Of a stretch of DNA of 64,000 nucleotides, positions 1,311 to 59,732 are shown piece by piece (position 1 is the stretch's first letter; every line of letters begins with the position of its first letter). This DNA is from Candidatus Latescibacterota bacterium (lineage in GTDB: Bacteria > Latescibacterota > UBA2968): assembly GCA_965222605.1 (NCBI GenBank), contig OZ244960.1, positions 3,360,001 through 3,424,000 of the forward strand, given 5' to 3'. The position numbers and the translations under genes are program-made. The notes below the pieces were generated by a model, which made no database searches, had not been told where the DNA came from, and saw only the letters and a program-made list of their open reading frames with translations.

Positions 1311-1964
1311 TCAAGGAATAAGTTTTTCAGGATCGTCAGCCGGTATAGGAATGGAACCGAGTTCTATAAGGTGGGCGTTATCAGGTGAGTTCAGAGCAAA
1401 TACCGGCTTGTCTTGAGCGAGCGCGTCCTTGCATAGCGTCTCTGTTTTGCCGCCCGGTTCCGCATGGGCGATAAGGATGCGGTCGGCGAGTGCGGCGATG
1501 TGTGCGTTGCGCTGGACTGCTATGGCTGAGGTCGGGCGATGGATGTTGCCGTTGAAAAAGGAAAGGATTAGCATGCGTCCTTCGGCGAGCGGTTTCTTCC
1601 AGTTTTTCGGAGTTCGCATGCGGTTGAGTCCCCGCGCCGGGCAGACGACAACGGGTGCCGTGCCCCGCAACAGGAGATCCAGGCATTCCTTTTCCATTGG
1701 TGACTGAAAACCGCCGATGATCGTCGCGTCTGTATCTCGGAGTGATCGTGCAAGGTCGTAGGTCTTAAGGATTGCGTCTCCAGGAGAGCGCACCGAGCAG
1801 AAGAAGCCGAGCAATGTACTGTCGAGTACATTGAGGTTCCCCTGCGCTGTGACCGTCAATAGCTGCCCATCATTCGAACAACGCTGTAATGCCGCTGGAT
1901 AGTCAGGAGTATCGGGCATTAGAAGTATTTTGTTCTCAGGATTCATAGCAAATTTATGAATCAA
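1311..1964 (-). CDS. DprA/Smf-like SLOG-domain protein (short, no C-terminal wHTH)
   Basis: GNL, LGFFCS, IIGGFQS, QRNAHIAALAD, AEPGGKT motifs of the DNA_processg_A/SLOG fold. Confidence 0.75.
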   Translation of the reverse strand: MIHKFAMNPENKILLMPDTPDYPAALQRCSNDGQLLTVTAQGNLNVLDSTLLGFFCSVRSPGDAILKTYDLARSLRDTDATIIGGFQSPMEKECLDLLLRGTAPVVVCPARGLNRMRTPKNWKKPLAEGRMLILSFFNGNIHRPTSAIAVQRNAHIAALADRILIAHAEPGGKTETLCKDALAQDKPVFALNSPDNAHLIELGSIPIPADDPEKLIP

Positions 1965-2179
1965 CTGATCTCGCCGGTTGAGTTGTCTTCAAAGACGACC
2001 TTTTTAAACGTTTCTGGATCATCCAGCCGCTTCATGGCGTCGAGAATTTCGATGCCCGCGAGGCGGTCTGCCTCATCGTAATCCAGCGCAATTCCGTCTT
2101 CGAGATGTTTCGTTGTCACGGTTGTTTCTTTGAAGCAAATGTACAGTGCATCCACTTCCCGGTCATAAGATATTTTCAT
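1961..2179 (-). CDS. DUF2283-family antitoxin
   Basis: MKISYDREVDALYI...GIALDYD...LAGIEILDA signature. Confidence 0.85.
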   Translation of the reverse strand: MKISYDREVDALYICFKETTVTTKHLEDGIALDYDEADRLAGIEILDAMKRLDDPETFKKVVFEDNSTGEIS

Positions 2180-2280
2180 TGTTTTCTTCTCAAAAAATAG
2201 GTGACTACTGCATCAGGATAAAAAGGGCTGTCCATATCGATCTTGCGCTTGTCATTACGGGCGTTGTACGTACGCTTATC

Positions 2281-2334
2281 GTCATTGCGGCATGGTTTTA
2301 GCCGCCACGCCGAAGGCACAACGAAGTAATCCAG
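2281..2334. repeat. Copy of GTCATTGCGGC palindromic repeat interrupted by 22 extra bases
   Basis: GTCATTGCGGCATGGTTTTAGCCGC [CACGCCGAAGGCACAACGAAGT] AATCCAG compared with copies at 1219 and 36478. Confidence 0.65.
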
Positions 2335-2350
2335 AAGGTTTTGGTTGTTA

Positions 2351-2617
2351 TTACTGACGTTGCGCGGCGTCGTACCATGCCTGCATTCGCAATAGTGTGT
2401 CCATCCTGATGCCGAAGGCTTTCTCAATACGCAGTGCCATCTCAGCAGATAAGGTGGTATTGCTGTTCAGCAGGTCGGAAAGGATGGCTCGATGCACGCC
2501 CAGAATCTCGGCTGTCCTCGCGACGCTCAATCCCAATTCCTCGACAATTTCCGTGCGGATGAAATCGCCGGGATGCGAAGGCGTCATGGTTATATTAATG
2601 CCGTTGTCAGCCATCAT
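2351..2617 (-). CDS. higA: HigA-family antitoxin (HTH), no adjacent HigB
   Basis: PSHPGDFIR...LS.LLN...LSAEMALRIEKAFG...LLRMQAWYD. Confidence 0.85.
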   Translation of the reverse strand: MMADNGINITMTPSHPGDFIRTEIVEELGLSVARTAEILGVHRAILSDLLNSNTTLSAEMALRIEKAFGIRMDTLLRMQAWYDAAQRQ

Positions 2618-2632
2618 TGTATATTCCTCAAA

Positions 2633-4516
2633 TCATTTGTTGCCTCCGATTCCCATTTCGGTCAGGAACTGGGACGGTGCCTTCGGGTATCCGTAGTACT
2701 GTGTAGATCTCGTGAGTGTCAGCGTTTCCTCAACTCGCGTGATGGCTACGAAGCAGTTTCTCCGCTCCTCTTCAACCTCCTGGCTCGTTTCCCCCTTTTG
2801 CAGTGCGTAATATGATGGGAGTACCTCTTGTGCCATGCCAATTAAATAGACATGCTTGAACTCTAGGCCCTTCGCGCCATGCATGGTCATACAGCGCACG
2901 GCGTTCGGCCCTGGACGAGGTGTTTTCGAAGTGAGATCCATCTGTTGAAGATAGGCATTTAAGGTCAAGTTGCCGTGATTATACTCGCGGACGATCTCGT
3001 CATGCAGATTTTGCCAGGTCGTCACCTCATCGGCGACATCCCGGTCATTTTTTTCCCTCCACAATTGCCAGCCCTGATGGAGGAACCAATCGATAATTTC
3101 CAGAAAGGCGAGTGAATCCACGAGGTCTGAACGAATGCGAGTTAATGCGGCACATCCTGTTGTATCTGTAGATGCCGCATCAGCCCACGCACGCAGGAAA
3201 TCTCCACCCACAAGCACGGCATCTGCGACCACATCGTCAACCTCAAGCGTCTGCCCGGACAGCTTCTTCCACGCGAGACAGAGCCGTCGCAGGATATCGC
3301 GGTCGTGGCGCCCATTGGCTAAACGAAGGGCCTCGACCATCACACACACGGAAGCCGACTCGAAGTCGCTCTTTTGTCGCGCCAGATATGCTTCATAACC
3401 AGCATCGCGCAGAGCGTCTGCTGCACGCTCAATCAACTTCACGGATCGCCCCAGGACCACGCACTCCTCACCTCGGAGATCACGAGCATGAATATCTATC
3501 GGAATGAACGCCGCTTCTTTTTCTGGCGACGCGAAGGCACCATAGCGAACAGGGTTGCTATTCAGGCCCATCCTGGATCGAGCTGTGATGGGTGTCTTGC
3601 CCTGAGTGCGCATGCGATTATGAGCAATGAGGCGATTGGCAAGCTTGATGATGGGCGCGGGACAACGATAGCATTCTGGAAGTTGGATCACATCCATCTC
3701 GTAGTCCCGCTGTAGATGCGCGAGCCGTTCTGGACTTGCGCCATTCCATTGATAGATGATCTGATCGTCGTCCCCGACCACGAAGAGGTTGTGTCGCTTA
3801 TCGGGTGCAATCAGCCGGAGCAAATCGTATTGTGCTTTGTTGGTGTCTTGGAACTCATCAACACAAACGTGGGTCCAACCAATTCGCACCACTCGTGCGA
3901 CGCCAGGCTTCTCTTCCAAAAGCTGTCGAGCGAAGTGAAGCAAACTTCCGAAGTCGAGCCGGTTACTGGCTAAGAGAGTATCGCAGTAGCTCACAAAGAG
4001 ATGTGGGAGCCAATCCGGCGTGTGAATAAGCGATGGCGCGTCTCCGCACCCGTCATAGGACTCCGCAAAAAGGCGTTCAATGAGGCTGAGGAGATTTTTG
4101 CGATCCGTCGGCAATGGCGTTTCATAATCGGGCAAACCAGCTATAACCTCGTCGAGGATGGCGATTTGGTCCTGGTCTTGCGTGATCAAACTAAAGTCGG
4201 GCCGTAGTCCCAAATGACTTCCGTGCTGACGCAGTATAGCGGCTGCAAAGGAATGAAATGTGTGCAAACGAGCGCGACTTGTGCGTTCGCCGAGAAGCGC
4301 ATCTACGCGCTCGCGCATCTCGACGGTAGCCTTGTTCGTAAAGGTGAGCGCGAGTGCTGCCACGTCCTCGCGTTCTTCAAGCAATCGTGCGACGCGGAAT
4401 GTTAAGACGCGCGTCTTGCCAGAACCCGGACCCGCCAGGACCAGAAGCGGTCCGCTGTTCCACGATACGGCAGTGCGCTGATTCTCATTGAGGCCATTGA
4501 GATCAATCGGCATCAT
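2633..4516 (-). CDS. gajB: UvrD-like helicase, Gabija B
   Basis: AGPGSGKT, VDEFQD, VGDDDQIIY, TMHGAKGLEF, EERRNCFVAITR; overlaps the stop of an OLD nuclease. Confidence 0.85.
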   Translation of the reverse strand: MMPIDLNGLNENQRTAVSWNSGPLLVLAGPGSGKTRVLTFRVARLLEEREDVAALALTFTNKATVEMRERVDALLGERTSRARLHTFHSFAAAILRQHGSHLGLRPDFSLITQDQDQIAILDEVIAGLPDYETPLPTDRKNLLSLIERLFAESYDGCGDAPSLIHTPDWLPHLFVSYCDTLLASNRLDFGSLLHFARQLLEEKPGVARVVRIGWTHVCVDEFQDTNKAQYDLLRLIAPDKRHNLFVVGDDDQIIYQWNGASPERLAHLQRDYEMDVIQLPECYRCPAPIIKLANRLIAHNRMRTQGKTPITARSRMGLNSNPVRYGAFASPEKEAAFIPIDIHARDLRGEECVVLGRSVKLIERAADALRDAGYEAYLARQKSDFESASVCVMVEALRLANGRHDRDILRRLCLAWKKLSGQTLEVDDVVADAVLVGGDFLRAWADAASTDTTGCAALTRIRSDLVDSLAFLEIIDWFLHQGWQLWREKNDRDVADEVTTWQNLHDEIVREYNHGNLTLNAYLQQMDLTSKTPRPGPNAVRCMTMHGAKGLEFKHVYLIGMAQEVLPSYYALQKGETSQEVEEERRNCFVAITRVEETLTLTRSTQYYGYPKAPSQFLTEMGIGGNK

Positions 4517-55359: not shown

Positions 55360-56853
55360 TCAGAGCACTTCTACTGTCCGTCGCTCCACTTCCTCCTGGT
55401 GGACCTGTCGCAAGCGGTCGCAAATGATGCGTTTTCTGTCTTCGGGGTCTTCTGTCGGGAACTGCATGCCGATGCGGGTGAACAGGGGTTTGTACCCGCG
55501 GGCGTGATTGAGTTGCGTGTCGGTGAGAAATGTTAGCAGCCTGTTGCGGAGACGCTGGGCTGTGTCTGCATGTGCGGACGACTGGGCAAGGTTCTGTATT
55601 TCATGCGGGTCGTTGTGCAGGTCGAACAGGCGTTCATTTTGGGCCTGGATGGACCATTTCCACCGGGCGTCGCGCACCATGTAGCAGAACTGGTCGTTGC
55701 GGGAGATTTCAGAGAAGACGGCATCGTGAACGCGGTCGGTCTCGCCGCTGACGATGGGGAGGAGTGAAACTGCCTGACAGTAGTCCGGGATTTCTGCGCC
55801 CGCCAGATCCAGGAAGGTTGGAAACAGGTCCAGGAAGGAGACCGGTGAGGCGTTGCGGTGTCCAGCAGTGCCGACGGGTGCGGCTGGTCCGCCGATGATG
55901 AGTGGTACGCGCGCCGATCCCTCTTCGAAGCCGGTTTTGGAGACGAGGCCGTGCTCACCCATGCGTTCTCCGTGGTCGGAGATAAATACGATGACGGTGT
56001 TTTCCCAGTTGCCGCGTTTTTTCAGGGCGGCTACGATTTCTCCAACGCGGTCGTCGAGATGGATGATCTTGCCCATGTACTGAGCGGTCATTTCGGCGAT
56101 GGCCTGGCGACCGTATTTGCAGCGTTTCTCGTTGTAGTTCTCTGGCAGGACGACATCGGCCGGATCGTACATTTTGGCGTATTTTCCGGGTGCGTCCAGA
56201 GGTGGATGAGGTCCGGGAAAACTGGCGCAGAGGAATAGGGGTTTGTCGGTGGGCGCGCGATCGAGGTACGCCAGGGTTTGTCGGCAGACATAGCCGTCCG
56301 GAGTCATGTCCGGTGGTAGCGGTGAGGGCCGGGGGGTGTATTGTCCATCTACGTAGCGGTCGCCGATGTCGGTGATAAAGGTGTCGAGGAGTCCCTCTTC
56401 TTTTAGCAGGCGGCTGTAGCCCGTTTTCAGGAAGGGTCCTTGAAATGGCGTTGAGGTTTCTTCAGCCCAGTCCAGGCCGAGTTGGTCGTAATAATCGCGG
56501 TAGTCTTCATAATCCTGACCCCATTCCAGGCTGAAGTAGTGGTATTTCCCGATTTTCGCGGTGGTATAGCCGGATTCTTGCAAGCAGCGGAAGAGTGTGA
56601 CTTGTTCGGGCGGGAATAGCATGCCGGTGTAGTTGCAAAAGAATCCGTGTGCGTGCGGGTAGAGGCCGCTGGCGAGCGATGCGCGCGCCGGCATACATAC
56701 GGGCGATGGCGTATAGGCCGCGTCGAAGATACAGCCGCTGGCTGCAAGCGCATCGAGGTGCGGGGTCTGGACCTGCGGGTGTCCCGCGCACCCCAGATAG
56801 CGCGCGTTCCACTGGTCGGAACAGATGAAGATGATGTCGGGTTGGGTATTCAT
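55360..56853 (-). CDS. Formylglycine-type sulfatase
   Basis: PDIIFICSDQ, CMPAR, GKYH, SDHG. Confidence 0.92.
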   Translation of the reverse strand: MNTQPDIIFICSDQWNARYLGCAGHPQVQTPHLDALAASGCIFDAAYTPSPVCMPARASLASGLYPHAHGFFCNYTGMLFPPEQVTLFRCLQESGYTTAKIGKYHYFSLEWGQDYEDYRDYYDQLGLDWAEETSTPFQGPFLKTGYSRLLKEEGLLDTFITDIGDRYVDGQYTPRPSPLPPDMTPDGYVCRQTLAYLDRAPTDKPLFLCASFPGPHPPLDAPGKYAKMYDPADVVLPENYNEKRCKYGRQAIAEMTAQYMGKIIHLDDRVGEIVAALKKRGNWENTVIVFISDHGERMGEHGLVSKTGFEEGSARVPLIIGGPAAPVGTAGHRNASPVSFLDLFPTFLDLAGAEIPDYCQAVSLLPIVSGETDRVHDAVFSEISRNDQFCYMVRDARWKWSIQAQNERLFDLHNDPHEIQNLAQSSAHADTAQRLRNRLLTFLTDTQLNHARGYKPLFTRIGMQFPTEDPEDRKRIICDRLRQVHQEEVERRTVEVL

Positions 56854-56988
56854 GGGTGCTCCTCTGTTGATCTGGGTTCTTATCATTGGGGCTTATATAT
56901 TTAAATAACAAACGACCAATACACAATTACATTATTCTAATCCCGTTATTTAATAACGGGGTTTTTTTGTAGTTATATCCGAAACACG

Positions 56989-57017
56989 TTGACTTGCCTA
57001 CCAATACCCTTTATCTT
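56989..57017 (+). promoter_or_regulatory. Sigma70 promoter of candidate structured RNA
   Basis: TTGACT-17 nt-TATCTT; predicted +1 near 57024. Confidence 0.6.
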
Positions 57018-57023
57018 TTACAC

Positions 57024-57185
57024 GTCTATTGTCAAGCAAACCCGCTATGTCGGGTAGCTTGCTGAATATAATAGCCTTGTGCTTACATGGGGTAGCTCCC
57101 TATGTACAGGCAAATAGGCAAGATTTCCCGCACATCGTTTGCGCGACAATAGACCTGCCCGGCACTTTTCGGAGCAGGTTATTTT
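57024..57185 (+). ncRNA. Candidate structured small RNA/attenuator
   Basis: 18-bp closing stem (2 mismatches) 57024-57041/57137-57154, nested stems, then hairpin ACCTGC...GCAGGT and T-rich tail. Confidence 0.5.
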
Positions 57186-57293
57186 AATATAAACAGGACT
57201 TACGCAAATCAATAGACAAAAGGGTATTCCATCCTTAAACTTCCCGCATAGGCGCGTAACGTGAACGAGGAGGAGTTTTGATGGACAAACCGA

Positions 57294-57323
57294 CCTGTCT
57301 GCGTGCGTACACGCACAGGCAGG
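57294..57323. repeat. 30-bp hairpin micro-insertion
   Basis: CCTGTCTGCGTGCGTACACGCACAGGCAGG; removal gives MDKPTSLDYCQY. Confidence 0.85.
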
Positions 57324-57379
57324 CCAGCTTGGATTACTGTCAGTATTTGCTCAGCAGTCCGATCAACTATACGCTGACG

Positions 57380-57431
57380 CCTGCCTGCTTGCCTGCGCGT
57401 TGCGCGCAAGCAGGTGCAGATGGCAGACAGG
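57380..57431. repeat. Nested micro-insertions (27-mer at 57388-57414 inside a 25-mer)
   Basis: CCTGCCTG[CTTGCCTGCGCGTTGCGCGCAAGCAGG]TGCAGATGGCAGACAGG; removal gives NYTLTHFADH. Confidence 0.88.
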
Positions 57432-58128
57432 CATTTTGCAGACCACAGCGAAGGCTTCAGCCATGATATGATCAATCGGTATCTGGCCGGAGATCGCATT
57501 GCCCCGCGCTTGGTCTGGGAACATGTCAAGTCGGCTATCGCATTAACGCCAAAGGGCTATGTGATCTTCGATGATACGGTCTTGGACAAACGCCATGCGC
57601 GAAAGATAGGACTTGTTCGTCGTCAATATAGTGGCAATGCCAAAGGGGTCATCAATGGCATCGGCGTGGTCACTTGCGTTTATGTCAATCCCGAACAAGA
57701 CCGGTTTTGGATCATTGACTATCGCATATATGACCCGCAAGGCGATGGCAAGACCAAGTTAGATCACGTCGTTGAGATGCTCTCCTTGTTGGTCTATCAA
57801 AAACACTTGCCTTTTCAGACGGTATTGATGGATAGTTGGTATGCGACCAAAGCTGTGATGCTACACATTGAGAAGTTGCAAAAAATCTATTATTGTCCCC
57901 TCAAGTCCAATCGGCGTGTGGACGATTCTTTAGGGCAATATCCCTATCAGCGAATAGATAGCCTGACTTGGACAGATAGCGAATCTCACGCAGGCAAACA
58001 CATTAAAATCAGAGGCTTTCCCAAAGACCACAAGGTGAAATTATTTCGGGTGGTGTCCTCTACCGGGCACACGGAACATGTCGTGACCAACGACAAGGCT
58101 CAAAAGGATACCCAAGTGGCACAACAGG

Positions 58129-58184
58129 CCTGTCTGCCAGAAGCACAGGCAGGCGTGCCTGCTTGCGCGCCCCGCGCAGGCAAG
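58129..58184. repeat. Two adjacent micro-insertions (25-mer 58129-58153, 27-mer 58158-58184)
   Basis: CCTGTCTGCCAGAAGCACAGGCAGG and CCTGCTTGCGCGCCCCGCGCAGGCAAG; removal gives VAQQACHWRWKIE. Confidence 0.88.
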
Positions 58185-58445
58185 TCACTGGCGCTGGAAA
58201 ATTGAGCAATTCCACCGAGAGGCAAAACAAGTCACAGGGCTTGAAAAATGTCAATGCCGCTTGGCACGCATTGTGCGAAATCACATTGGGTGTGCCTTCC
58301 TCGTTTGGCTACGCCTTGAGCAGGTCGCCTATCAAACACGACAATCCGTTTATCAGGTCAAATACGGCTTGTTGGATGACTATCTCAGACAACAACTCAA
58401 AGATCCCTCTATTCTCATGACCCTTGCGTAAGTCCTAATAAAAAT

Positions 58446-58476
58446 AGCGCGTTGGTTTGTGGAGAACCAACGCGCT
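58446..58476 (-). terminator. Probable intrinsic terminator
   Basis: 12-bp perfect stem AGCGCGTTGGTT/AACCAACGCGCT with T-tract on the minus strand. Confidence 0.55.
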
Positions 58477-58830
58477 GGATCGGGGGTTTTGTTTTTACAC
58501 ATCTCACCAAGGATAGACGGATAATTTTTACCCGTCTCGCAATTTAAAAGCCTCCTATTTTCCAAAAAATAATAAAGTAATATTTTTGCGTCAAGTAAAA
58601 ATTGCTCATGGATAACTACCTTAACTTGTTTGTTTAATGGCAGTTATATTTAAAATAATCTTAACTTAGGAGAATAGTGTGGCTAAATCTTTATACGCAC
58701 AATACTTCGGACATTTTTTAAAAAAGGGATAGACAAAAAAGTGCCGTTCACACAGATTGGATGTCAAAGATTTTCCCAGTCAAAGGGATCTGTAACCCAA
58801 AATTTGAACCAGTTAGCAGGCTAATTCACG

Positions 58831-59732
58831 CTAAGGATCAGTCGTGATATTTCTCATAAGAATTGCCTGCACCACTTCTTGTGGCGTCTGGTAGCTCAGG
58901 GCAGAATGCCGTCGGCCCTGATTGTAATACGTCATTTGCTTGTCTATCACACAGATAAGTTCTGCCAAAGCGTCTGCTTGCATCATCAAAGTTTTGTTTT
59001 CGGTTTTGAAACGTCCCAGAAGGACTCAATCCACGGATTATCTTTTGCTCCGTTCATCGCAAAAGAAATCCCTGCACGTTCTTTGATCAACACACGATGT
59101 AACCAGTCGTATGAGGTATAAACTGAATCGCGGTCATGATGGATGAGGATGTCCGAAAGTCTCCTGTCCAAACAGGCCAAGTTATTTTGCAACTGATCCA
59201 AACAATAAATCGCCAGGGCACGATTGCGATGTGCGCCCACGCCAAAGCCTGCGATCCATCTGGTGTGGATGTCCAAAAAGGCCATTAACCACGCTTTTTT
59301 CTGTCCCTGGCAATAGCGTACTTCGGTAAAGTCGGTGCAAAAGACACACAGCGGATCAACGGTGCGGTTCTGAACTAAATTGGCGTCTTGTCCCACCTCG
59401 CTTATCAGCTTCAATACCGGATTCTTGCCACGTTTTGGCAGATGACGAGGTAAGTCCAACTCATAGGTTGACAAGAGCTTACGCAACCGCTTATGATTGA
59501 CCACGATGCCAGTACGGGCTTTTATATCTTCCTTGATGCGGCGATACCCATAACCAGGATGATGCCGGATCGTGGTTATGATCTCGTCCTTTATCTGCTC
59601 ATCTGATCTCGAACAAGATGCCTGACCGCGACGATAATGAAGCGTCCCTTTGGACAAGCCTAAGGCACGACAGCACATATTCAGACCATACCTGTCTTTA
59701 TGCCTTTCGACCAGTTCTACTTTCTCAGACAC
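58831..59732 (-). pseudogene. IS3 OrfB integrase with 1-bp frameshift near 59015
   Basis: YGYRR, TDFT, HHDR, DNPWIESFW; one more G restores GRFKTEN...YYNQGRRHSALSY. Confidence 0.82.

Follow-up and report, generated by a model that had tools for sequence, protein, structure and literature searches.

Micro-insertions in a Latescibacterota insertion sequence are copies of a short hairpin-forming repeat of many bacterial phyla

The window analysed here is a stretch of 64,000 nucleotides from the genome of a Candidatus Latescibacterota bacterium (GenBank assembly GCA_965222605.1, contig OZ244960.1, positions 3,360,001 to 3,424,000), and the element in question is an insertion sequence at 57195-58436 on its forward strand, bounded by 13-base terminal inverted repeats at 57195-57207 and 58424-58436. 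The DDE transposase gene of this element carries five short inserts of 25, 27 or 30 bases, and is divided by such micro-insertions over three reading frames. We find that the inserts are copies of a hairpin-forming selfish DNA repeat of 24-36 bases that occurs in many bacterial phyla. The units have constant arms and a variable centre; the centre is copied faithfully, and its variants mark sub-lineages of the repeat.

Two 25-mers and two 27-mers had already been singled out in a previous reading made from the letters of the window (here called the sequence-only reading) as pairs with identical arms and differing centres. Their coordinates and letters are confirmed, and a 30-mer is a third related insert, beyond these two pairs. 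The forward 25-mer, CCTGTCTGCCA-GAA-GCACAGGCAGG (58129-58153, + strand), is inserted at CAGG^CGTG, and the forward 27-mer, CCTGCTTGCGCG-CCC-CGCGCAGGCAAG (58158-58184, +), at CGTG^TCAC. The four bases CGTG that lie between these two independent insertions (58154-58157, +) belong to the host and are also found in empty paralogues. The other pair lies on the minus strand and is nested: a reverse 25-mer with the centre TCT, which spans 57380-57431 as a whole, is split into its left 8 bases (57380-57387) and right 17 bases (57415-57431) by a reverse 27-mer with the centre CAA (57388-57414). The two 25-mers have 22 arm bases in common and differ at all three bases of the centre (GAA and TCT), while the two 27-mers have 24 arm bases in common and differ at two of the three (CCC and CAA). 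The 30-mer, CCTGTCTGCGTGCG-TA-CACGCACAGGCAGG (57294-57323, +), adds ten codons and keeps the reading frame; each pair of a 25-mer and a 27-mer comes to 52 bases and shifts the frame, which happens twice. A Pfam DDE_5 match of 33.1 bits covers 57432-58128, and residues 1-23, 6-266 and 264-347 of an intact paralogous transposase of 347 amino acids align to the window in three co-linear pieces, in three frames. As the segments are open and co-linear with the intact paralogue, the gene shows no breaks other than the inserts. The window copy of the insertion sequence is probably dead, its transposase frame having been broken by them.

That the units are insertions can be read from the genome itself (6,338,376 bases in one contig), which carries three further paralogous copies of the insertion sequence and so permits a four-copy alignment. 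The paralogues at 3.72 and 3.01 Mb, which share about 76% identity with the window copy, are without all five inserts, and the empty sites are readable in them, as in CAACAGG^CGTG^TCACTGG or in CAACAGGCGTGTCACTGG, the empty site of the forward 25-mer. The paralogue at 2.12 Mb, which is truncated and 86% identical, contains the 30-mer and an uninterrupted TCT 25-mer (2121269-2121293) that is otherwise identical to the window unit, and lacks the nested 27-mer; the 27-mer at 57388 therefore entered a pre-existing 25-mer, at GCA^CAGG. In all, the alignment yields four comparisons of empty with filled sites. No target duplication is seen at any site, within the limit that a duplication of 0-1 base cannot be excluded, and the ambiguity of the junctions ranges from 0 to 4 bases, being 0-1 at most sites. 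The 25-, 27- and 30-mers are precise insertions without target duplication. The view of the sequence-only reading that these are discrete, mobile micro-insertions is thus borne out by the paralogues, and both orientations do occur within the one transposase gene. Across the genome, the 22-base arm pair of the 25-mer is present three times in contiguous form and once interrupted, and the 24-base arm pair of the 27-mer is present twice.

We extended the search to a panel of 61 genomes, made up of the genome of the window (G000) and 60 others of the same class. The 25-mer (up to 2 mismatches) was found in 13 genomes, the 27-mer (up to 3) in 11 and the 30-mer (up to 3) in 16, compared with 0, 1 and 0 matches for the respective reversed patterns. 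Given these near-zero controls and the repeated arm pairs in the genome of the window, the inserts are not chance sequences. The shared base of the superfamily, CCTGTCTGC-(1-24 bases)-GCACAGGCAGG, is present in 27 of the 61 genomes at 0-96 copies each, with all controls at 0. Six genomes hold 96, 92, 52, 48, 45 and 34 copies of the exact base, and several congeners of the copy-rich ones hold none. Units of 24, 25, 27, 28, 30, 33 and 36 bases are the commonest, and units of 26, 29, 31 and 34 bases also occur. A scan of one genome per species returned at least 123 loci, with flanks that are almost all unrelated, while viral contigs contain 61 loci and metagenome contigs at least 124 loci. Among the matches listed for the one-genome-per-species scan are Lentisphaeria, Thermodesulfobacteriota, Desulfobacteraceae, Brocadia, Kuenenia, Zetaproteobacteria, Verrucomicrobiota, Methylomirabilis, Nitrospirota, Nitrospinota, Anaerolineales, Acidobacteriota, WOR-3, Binatia, Spirochaeta, Syntrophomonadaceae, Latescibacterota and others. 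Searches of literature text left 13-base strings of the motif unmatched and found 11-base strings only in papers on unrelated subjects. A word search on nested hairpin repeats returned no description of this hairpin family; the supplement of PMC3733652, which lay outside that search, might list related repeats.

Single-strand folding places the variable bases at the tip of a hairpin. The 27-mer is predicted to fold at -10.5 kcal/mol (z -2.5 against shuffles) into a 10-bp stem in which the variable triplet forms a triloop. The 30-mer is predicted to fold at -9.2 kcal/mol (z -2.8). Its outer stem, CCTGTC/GGCAGG, includes a T.G pair and is followed by a CA bulge of two bases, then by an inner stem and a loop of four bases, the last two of which are the variable TA. 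The fold of the 25-mer is not clearly better than that of its shuffles (z about -1); by inspection it has the same base as the 30-mer and a shorter top. Because of this common base, the 25-mer and the 30-mer belong together in a single family and differ in their apical parts; the 27-mer (CCTGCTTGCGCG...) belongs to a sister family. In these folding models the variable centre lies in the hairpin loop or apical part in every case, and the constant arms form the lower stem with its T.G pair and CA bulge. A search of 57000-58600 with Rfam covariance models gave only two matches, both at chance level (E 0.27 and 0.45) and far under the gathering scores.

Two copies per pair are too few to establish constant arms around a variable centre, as the sequence-only reading had proposed, and per-position entropy in wider scans does establish it. 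Pattern searches that fix both arms are unable to measure arm variation, so metagenomes were scanned with a pattern that prescribed just the 13 bases on the left and the final four, leaving the right arm free. Among the 117 matches with distinct flanks in the list obtained, the free arm GCACAGG is exact in 100 and has one mismatch in 8. For these 117, the entropy of the three centre positions is 1.70, 1.17 and 0.61 bits, compared with 0.20-0.47 bits for the seven free arm positions. The third centre base hardly varies, being C in 105 of the 117. At large scale, the arms vary far less than the first two bases of the loop, and the centre drifts because nothing constrains it.

The centres themselves recur. 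Exact-arm 25-mers (n = 15) have TCT in 11 cases, TGG in 2, and TCG and GAA in 1 each; exact-arm 27-mers (n = 31) have CTG in 24, CAA in 3 and four other triplets once each; and exact-arm 30-mers (n = 50) have GA in 28, TA in 18 and four other doublets once each. The TCT centre is found in at least six unrelated flank contexts in different genomes. A related 27-mer with the centre AAC occurs 14 times among the matches listed, in different phyla and with flanks that are almost all unrelated, and AAC accounts for 39 of the 117 metagenome matches listed. All 26 exact-arm copies of a 28-mer in genome G034 have AA at the two free bases, and their flanks differ. Since the same centres are found at unrelated sites in unrelated organisms, the centre is copied and not captured: the centres fall into a few fixed alleles that descent explains, which is the outcome that the sequence-only reading had named as refuting its own proposal of a captured coupling or spacer sequence.

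The hairpins have a recognisable target. In 132 non-redundant flank pairs, the base at -1 is a purine in 84%, the base at +1 is C in 78% and the base at +2 is a purine in 74%. The empty sites of the window read G^C, G^T, A^C and A^C; as these empty sites contain the flanking bases, the purine^C bases belong to the target. Nesting recurs well beyond the window: among the matches listed, seven loci (L102, L130, L139, L171, L189, L200 and L205) have a unit in the loop of another family member or at the edge of that loop, and in four others (L105, L135, L147 and L177) a second host hairpin was entered at GCG^CAGT. In the genus g7, a larger repeat contains the site AAGGGCCGGACG^CAGCCCGGATGG, which resembles the loop of a small CCGG palindrome. 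Five genomes each hold 33-65 empty copies of this site (control 0). In G046 a 27-mer occupies it and in G034 a 28-mer, in both cases exactly at G^C. At one locus of G034 (L417, contig C15) a 28-mer is bordered on its left by the flank of one host hairpin (…GCCTGCAGCG) and on its right by that of the AAGGGCCGGACG^CAGCCCGGATGG repeat (CAGCCCGGATGG…), which hints that hairpins act as recombination joints between repeats.

Two further sets of sites were compared between genomes. The 25-mer at G000:C1:233185-233209 stands in a mosaic of repeats that are found only in G000 and G019; both it and the 25-mer at L009 in G017 lie in a CAGTTGTACACC-type repeat at TGTA^CAAC, with the centres ATGG and TCCAT, and the shared position is either a hot spot or an old common event followed by a change of the loop. 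A small YgiT/MqsA-like gene family that has lost its zinc-finger cysteines (L001, L002 and L003, in G046, G048 and G031) has a 25-mer at the same codon in three genomes and two paralogues, where it shifts the conserved C-terminal part (…RTIETPVYEY…) into another frame.

Transposase genes are prominent among the hosts. Loci L001-L044 comprise 48 distinct hairpin sites, of which 33 lie in open frames of at least 120 codons. The Pfam scan covered 29 such frames, four rows for the window insertion sequence and its 2.12-Mb paralogue having been left out. Eleven of the frames through hairpins are annotated by Pfam, and six of these have transposase domains of five families: DDE_Tnp_4 (twice, in one element), ISL3, IS110, DDE_Tnp_1_4 and DUF4096. 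The frame at L026 contains four in-frame inserts, and its transposase match is below threshold. Hairpin clusters in genome G035 involve a UPF0236 frame with four hairpins, a DDE_Tnp_1 gene and, again, the DDE_Tnp_4 element. Overall, at least eight Pfam transposase families are hit, and 3-5 hairpins per insertion sequence is a recurring pattern of which the window element is a typical case. The enrichment may come from tolerance in dead or dispensable genes, from targeting, or from accumulation during passage through copy-rich genomes. Ordinary genes are also entered: an ABC transporter and an fn3/cadherin protein each have an in-frame 27-mer in a linker between domains. The sister insertion sequence in the genome of the window (G000:C1:3723176-3724216 and 3011515-3012555) is present as two 100% identical copies with the intact 347-aa transposase, and this protein has an in-frame insert of 27 bases from another small repeat family (peptide ERGTTAPAV), with none in the window copy. 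The identity of the two copies suggests that the insert-bearing transposase still works.

From these observations, the inserts are probably ultra-small, non-coding, mobile hairpin repeats moved in trans by a structure-specific enzyme, with the loop inherited. The model we have in mind is that of the repetitive extragenic palindromes (REPs) and their REP-associated tyrosine transposases (RAYTs), by analogy with which a DNA enzyme would act in trans and would read the base of the stem and the bulge, not the loop. Its probable substrate would be transiently single-stranded DNA, and insertion sequences and phages would carry copies along with them from one genome or phylum to another. For the RAYT-REP crystal structure, excerpts of PMC3479197 describe a protein that binds the base of the stem, the bulge and the 5' tag, leaving the hairpin tip uncontacted.

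Several points weigh against this reading. No mobilising enzyme was found at the Y1 and RAYT loci examined in the panel genomes. Matches to Y1 (HUH) transposases exist in 40 of the 61 genomes, and at nine of ten Y1_Tnp loci (in G000, G034, G035 and G049) there is no 25-, 27- or 30-mer within 1.5 kb, allowing up to 3-4 mismatches. The sole exception, in G035, is one 25-mer that lies upstream of what is left of the frame of a broken IS200-like gene, at a distance of about 40 bases. Genome G046, with 92 copies, is without a Y1 transposase match in an assembly of about 100 contigs, and the RAYT-like gene of G049 is flanked by REP pairs of its own, of different sequence (CGAGGGCAGGGATGCCCTCG). Hairpin orientation in G035 does not follow GC skew (33+/32- in the positive parts and 11+/16- in the negative part; p 0.49), with origin and terminus placed only roughly, from 20 sampled stretches; on this placement, G035 does not show the strand link that would be expected of IS200/IS605-type single-strand transposition. 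The genome of the window has only 6 copies of the exact base, so that activity there is unproven. Many of the g7 copies sit in the one larger repeat described above, and may have been multiplied as its passengers. Finally, the perfect conservation of hairpins in hosts that have diverged, which speaks for constraint on the hairpin, can also be read in other ways. The 30-mer and 25-mer that the window insertion sequence has in common with its 2.12-Mb paralogue are identical at 55 of 55 positions, compared with 404 of 454 for the remainder (chance about 0.002). Such conservation, like the constant AA of the G034 28-mer, is compatible with a selected hairpin, with gene conversion or with renewed insertion at one site, and in diverged hosts generally it could reflect re-insertion, gene conversion or a host function.

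A more tentative account, and one that we would put forward as a possibility to keep in view, is that of a pan-bacterial micro-transposon: a single hairpin of 24-36 bases that inserts at purine^C in DNA loops and preferentially colonises mobile DNA, such as transposase genes of many insertion-sequence families, small palindromic repeats and phages, as both a safe harbour and a vehicle from phylum to phylum, by means of an unrecognised protein or a universal host activity.

A dedicated enzyme might be dispensed with altogether if hairpins were copied by polymerase template switching or palindrome repair via short homologies, the loop being the point at which synthesis turns. The frequency of insertions in the loops of small palindromes and of family members is in keeping with this, as are the 1-4 bases of junction homology at some window sites and the failure to find an enzyme at the loci examined. 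We nevertheless regard it as unlikely, since the boundaries of the unit are the same at hundreds of unrelated sites, including the non-palindromic coding DNA of the window transposase, the junction homology at most sites is a single base or none, the purine^C target is a defined one, and the loops of the copies are identical instead of being rewritten.

It is likewise doubtful that these are strict REPs that owe their movement to a RAYT-type (Y1, HUH) transposase encoded in the copy-rich genomes. The best evidence for this comes from genus g7, where RAYT-like matches (E < 1e-7) are found in 5 of 6 genomes with at least 15 hairpins and in 0 of 9 with at most 4 (Fisher 0.002), although these genomes are kin and the association is not made up of independent cases. 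The imperfect stem, the bulge, the G.T pairs, the loop variants and the insertion into small palindromes are all REP-like, and the 25-mer beside the broken IS200-like gene of G035 could be counted on the same side. Set against this are the separation of hairpins from the RAYT-like genes examined, the separate REPs of the G049 gene, the 92 copies of G046 and the even strand distribution in G035, all given above, together with the absence of a GTAG/CGTC tag and the occurrence of the hairpins as single units and not as inverted doublets.

Host-selected stem-loops, acting as an RNA or DNA signal that, for example, disables or throttles transposase genes, would account for the strong enrichment in transposase genes, which extends over at least eight Pfam families with several hairpins per gene, as well as for hairpins conserved perfectly in diverged hosts, and the G.T pairs are compatible with RNA folding. 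We consider this improbable. Both orientations occur in one gene, and each strand of the hairpin has both wobble pairs and mismatches, such that neither transcript is favoured. The copies are as patchy among congeners (0 to 92) as selfish DNA would be, they are present in phage contigs and in the linkers of ordinary genes, and the Rfam search of 57000-58600 offered no match.

RNA-level removal or bypass, which would restore the frame, was also considered and rejected: contigs from three RNA libraries (X16 records 9 and 12, X17 record 16, X15 records 1 and 6) cross all five inserts without gaps, with the limits that rare forms are not excludable and that DNA carry-over is possible. The single joint seen in RNA contigs, 57378>57432, derives from an empty paralogue, as it comes with 8 other letters. 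The sequencing runs that contain the window insertion sequence include sponge metatranscriptomes. In metagenome contigs, three extra bases (GCC) follow 57308 on the 30-mer (57292-57324), at a depth of up to several hundred; these contigs are other members of the family (33-mers) that are abundant in the same samples.

The original model, in which the central three bases are captured from donor or target at each mobilisation, can be given practically no credence: the centre is by far the most variable part and the window pairs differ there alone, but identical centres (TCT, CTG, GA, TA and AAC) at many unrelated sites, a third base that is C in nearly all the matches listed, and centres that bear no relation to their flanks at the loci examined rule out the capture of a coupling sequence.

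REPs are among the closest known systems. They and the hairpins are both dispersed, imperfect palindromes of 20-40 bases with mismatches, bulges and G.T pairs, found singly or clustered, with some copies in frame within genes and some in small palindromes, and with a constant stem that bears alternative loops. The sequence-only reading held its pattern to be unlike ordinary REPs, and here it does not stand, because alternative loops on a constant stem are described for REP families in excerpts of Di Nocera et al. (2013, PMC3733652). The same excerpts describe REP families as species-specific or common to several species. The hairpin family differs in that one sequence is found in many phyla and in its strong enrichment in transposase genes. 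It fails three of the four REP/RAYT features tested and shares the fourth, that of the dispersed imperfect palindrome: its units start with CCTG and end with CAGG, with no GTAG/CGTC tag at the foot of the hairpin; its copies do not flank RAYT genes at the loci examined; and single units, not the inverted doublets known as REPINs, occupy the window insertion sequence and the AAGGGCCGGACG^CAGCCCGGATGG site.

A likeness of kind exists to the small dispersed repeats (SDRs) of Nostoc-type cyanobacteria, SDR1-8, which are said to have been described by Elhai et al. in 2008 in Genome Res 18:1484 and which reportedly are 21-27 bases long, bear marks of mobility and are nested in small repeats. We know of no enzyme that moves them. 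Set against that description, the hairpin family is likewise dispersed, has empty and filled sites, and is nested. Excerpts of PMC3116915 mention the SDRs of cyanobacteria, and excerpts of PMC5861425 state that the short palindrome HIP1 may be the insertion site of SDR5 and that SDRs occur only in Nostocaceae. The sequence family is a different one, and the hairpins are found in many phyla, not in Nostocaceae only; the purine^C target and the transposase-gene enrichment are features of the hairpin family.

Rickettsia palindromic elements (RPEs) of the RPE-1 type are about 100-150 bases long and confined to Rickettsia and relatives. Excerpts of PMC3733652 describe RPEs as palindromic repeats inserted in frame in protein-coding genes, and the linker 27-mers and the ten codons of the window 30-mer are similar in this respect. 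The hairpin family differs in its size of 24-36 bases, with many lengths that break the frame, such as 25 and 28.

IS200/IS605 elements have a specific left target of 4-5 bases and a replication-strand bias. For the hairpins, the left flank has low information, the purine^C target is weak and there is no strand bias in G035, where origin and terminus are roughly placed. IS200/IS605 elements also require two different ends, whereas the family here is one hairpin. The likeness lies in the recognition of an imperfect hairpin and in insertion without target duplication, as described in excerpts of PMC6006769 and PMC3479197. IS200-type ends as the source of the hairpins were rejected, as the end hairpins of intact IS200-like genes in G000 and G035 are unrelated. 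Miniature inverted-repeat transposable elements (MITEs) do not offer a match either: no duplication is seen at five kinds of site, and the terminal inverted repeats of the host insertion sequence are unrelated. The sequence-only reading had suggested a search for longer elements whose ends carry the arms. Each arm of 11-12 bases occurs only 2-12 times in the genome of the window, so no parent element ends in the arms there. Longer phage-borne elements were likewise discarded as candidates: three viral contigs have hairpin pairs at a distance of 4.1-6.2 kb, but what these pairs enclose is ordinary phage genes, or else they lie in a larger repeat. Outside bacteria, the fungal mitochondrial GC clusters, double-hairpin elements and 'byp' elements are palindromic, GC-rich mobile inserts of 30-50 bases that also enter coding regions; they are organellar. 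The byps are bypassed by ribosomes. In the case studied here, contigs from RNA libraries keep the hairpin inserts, and there are no matching take-off and landing codons.

Some other features were seen alongside. RAYT-like genes with repeats of their own are present in the panel. At L048 (G049:C1:4532312-4535533), a 201-aa RAYT-like gene has inverted doublets of CGAGGGCAGGGATGCCCTCG on both sides at a spacing of about 102 bp, which is a textbook REPIN/RAYT layout. The genome of the window has two GTAG-type palindromes, GTAAGGACAGGTTTCAAACCTGTCCTTAC and GTAGAGACAGGTTTCAAACCTGTCTCTAC, with a weak Y1_Tnp (RAYT-like) match at 5722963-5723127 between them (G000:C1:5720593-5723160), apparently a classical REP-RAYT unit that belongs to another family. 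A RAYT-like Y1 HUH segment is also part of a frame that reads as a DUF1156-type methyltransferase-like protein (L040, G031:C2:167357-170386, positions 1773-3029), and similar Y1 matches occur in frames of 1200-1440 codons in G031, G032, G048, G049 and G054. A census of perfect hairpins in the genome of the window counted 265, compared with 31 in shuffled sequence, and these are mostly terminators and GTAG-type REPs. Other short repeats there include GTAGGGGCGAGGCATGCCTCGCCCCTAC (about 43), the GGGACCGTCCCCTAC type (about 49), GTCATCGCGGCATG...GCCGCGATCCAG (about 90) and the CAGTTGTACACC type (about 46-66), in addition to two CRISPR repeat types (about 68 and 48 repeats). The neighbours of the window insertion sequence, as judged by reading them, are a 508-aa sulfatase-like gene (55360-56886, -) and a 248-aa frame resembling an IS3-type transposase with an integrase fold (58986-59732, -).

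For the smallest accepted mobile repeats of bacteria, the REPs and the cyanobacterial SDRs, a transposition mechanism is still undemonstrated. The hairpin family is clean material for this question, as it offers exact empty and filled sites, a purine^C target, nesting and a constant stem with a free loop. It also combines sharp presence and absence among congeners with a reach over many phyla and phage contigs, in which one and the same 27- or 30-base sequence recurs; with such clean sites and so patchy a distribution, a phylogeny-aware search for a gene that travels with the hairpins is feasible. For annotation, the inserts matter in that they break or lengthen genes, especially those of transposases, and give rise to spurious peptides such as LPxxxAQAG. 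Hairpin inserts may be a widespread cause of the decay of insertion sequences, and, if the micro-transposon reading is true, the hairpin would be a parasite of parasites.

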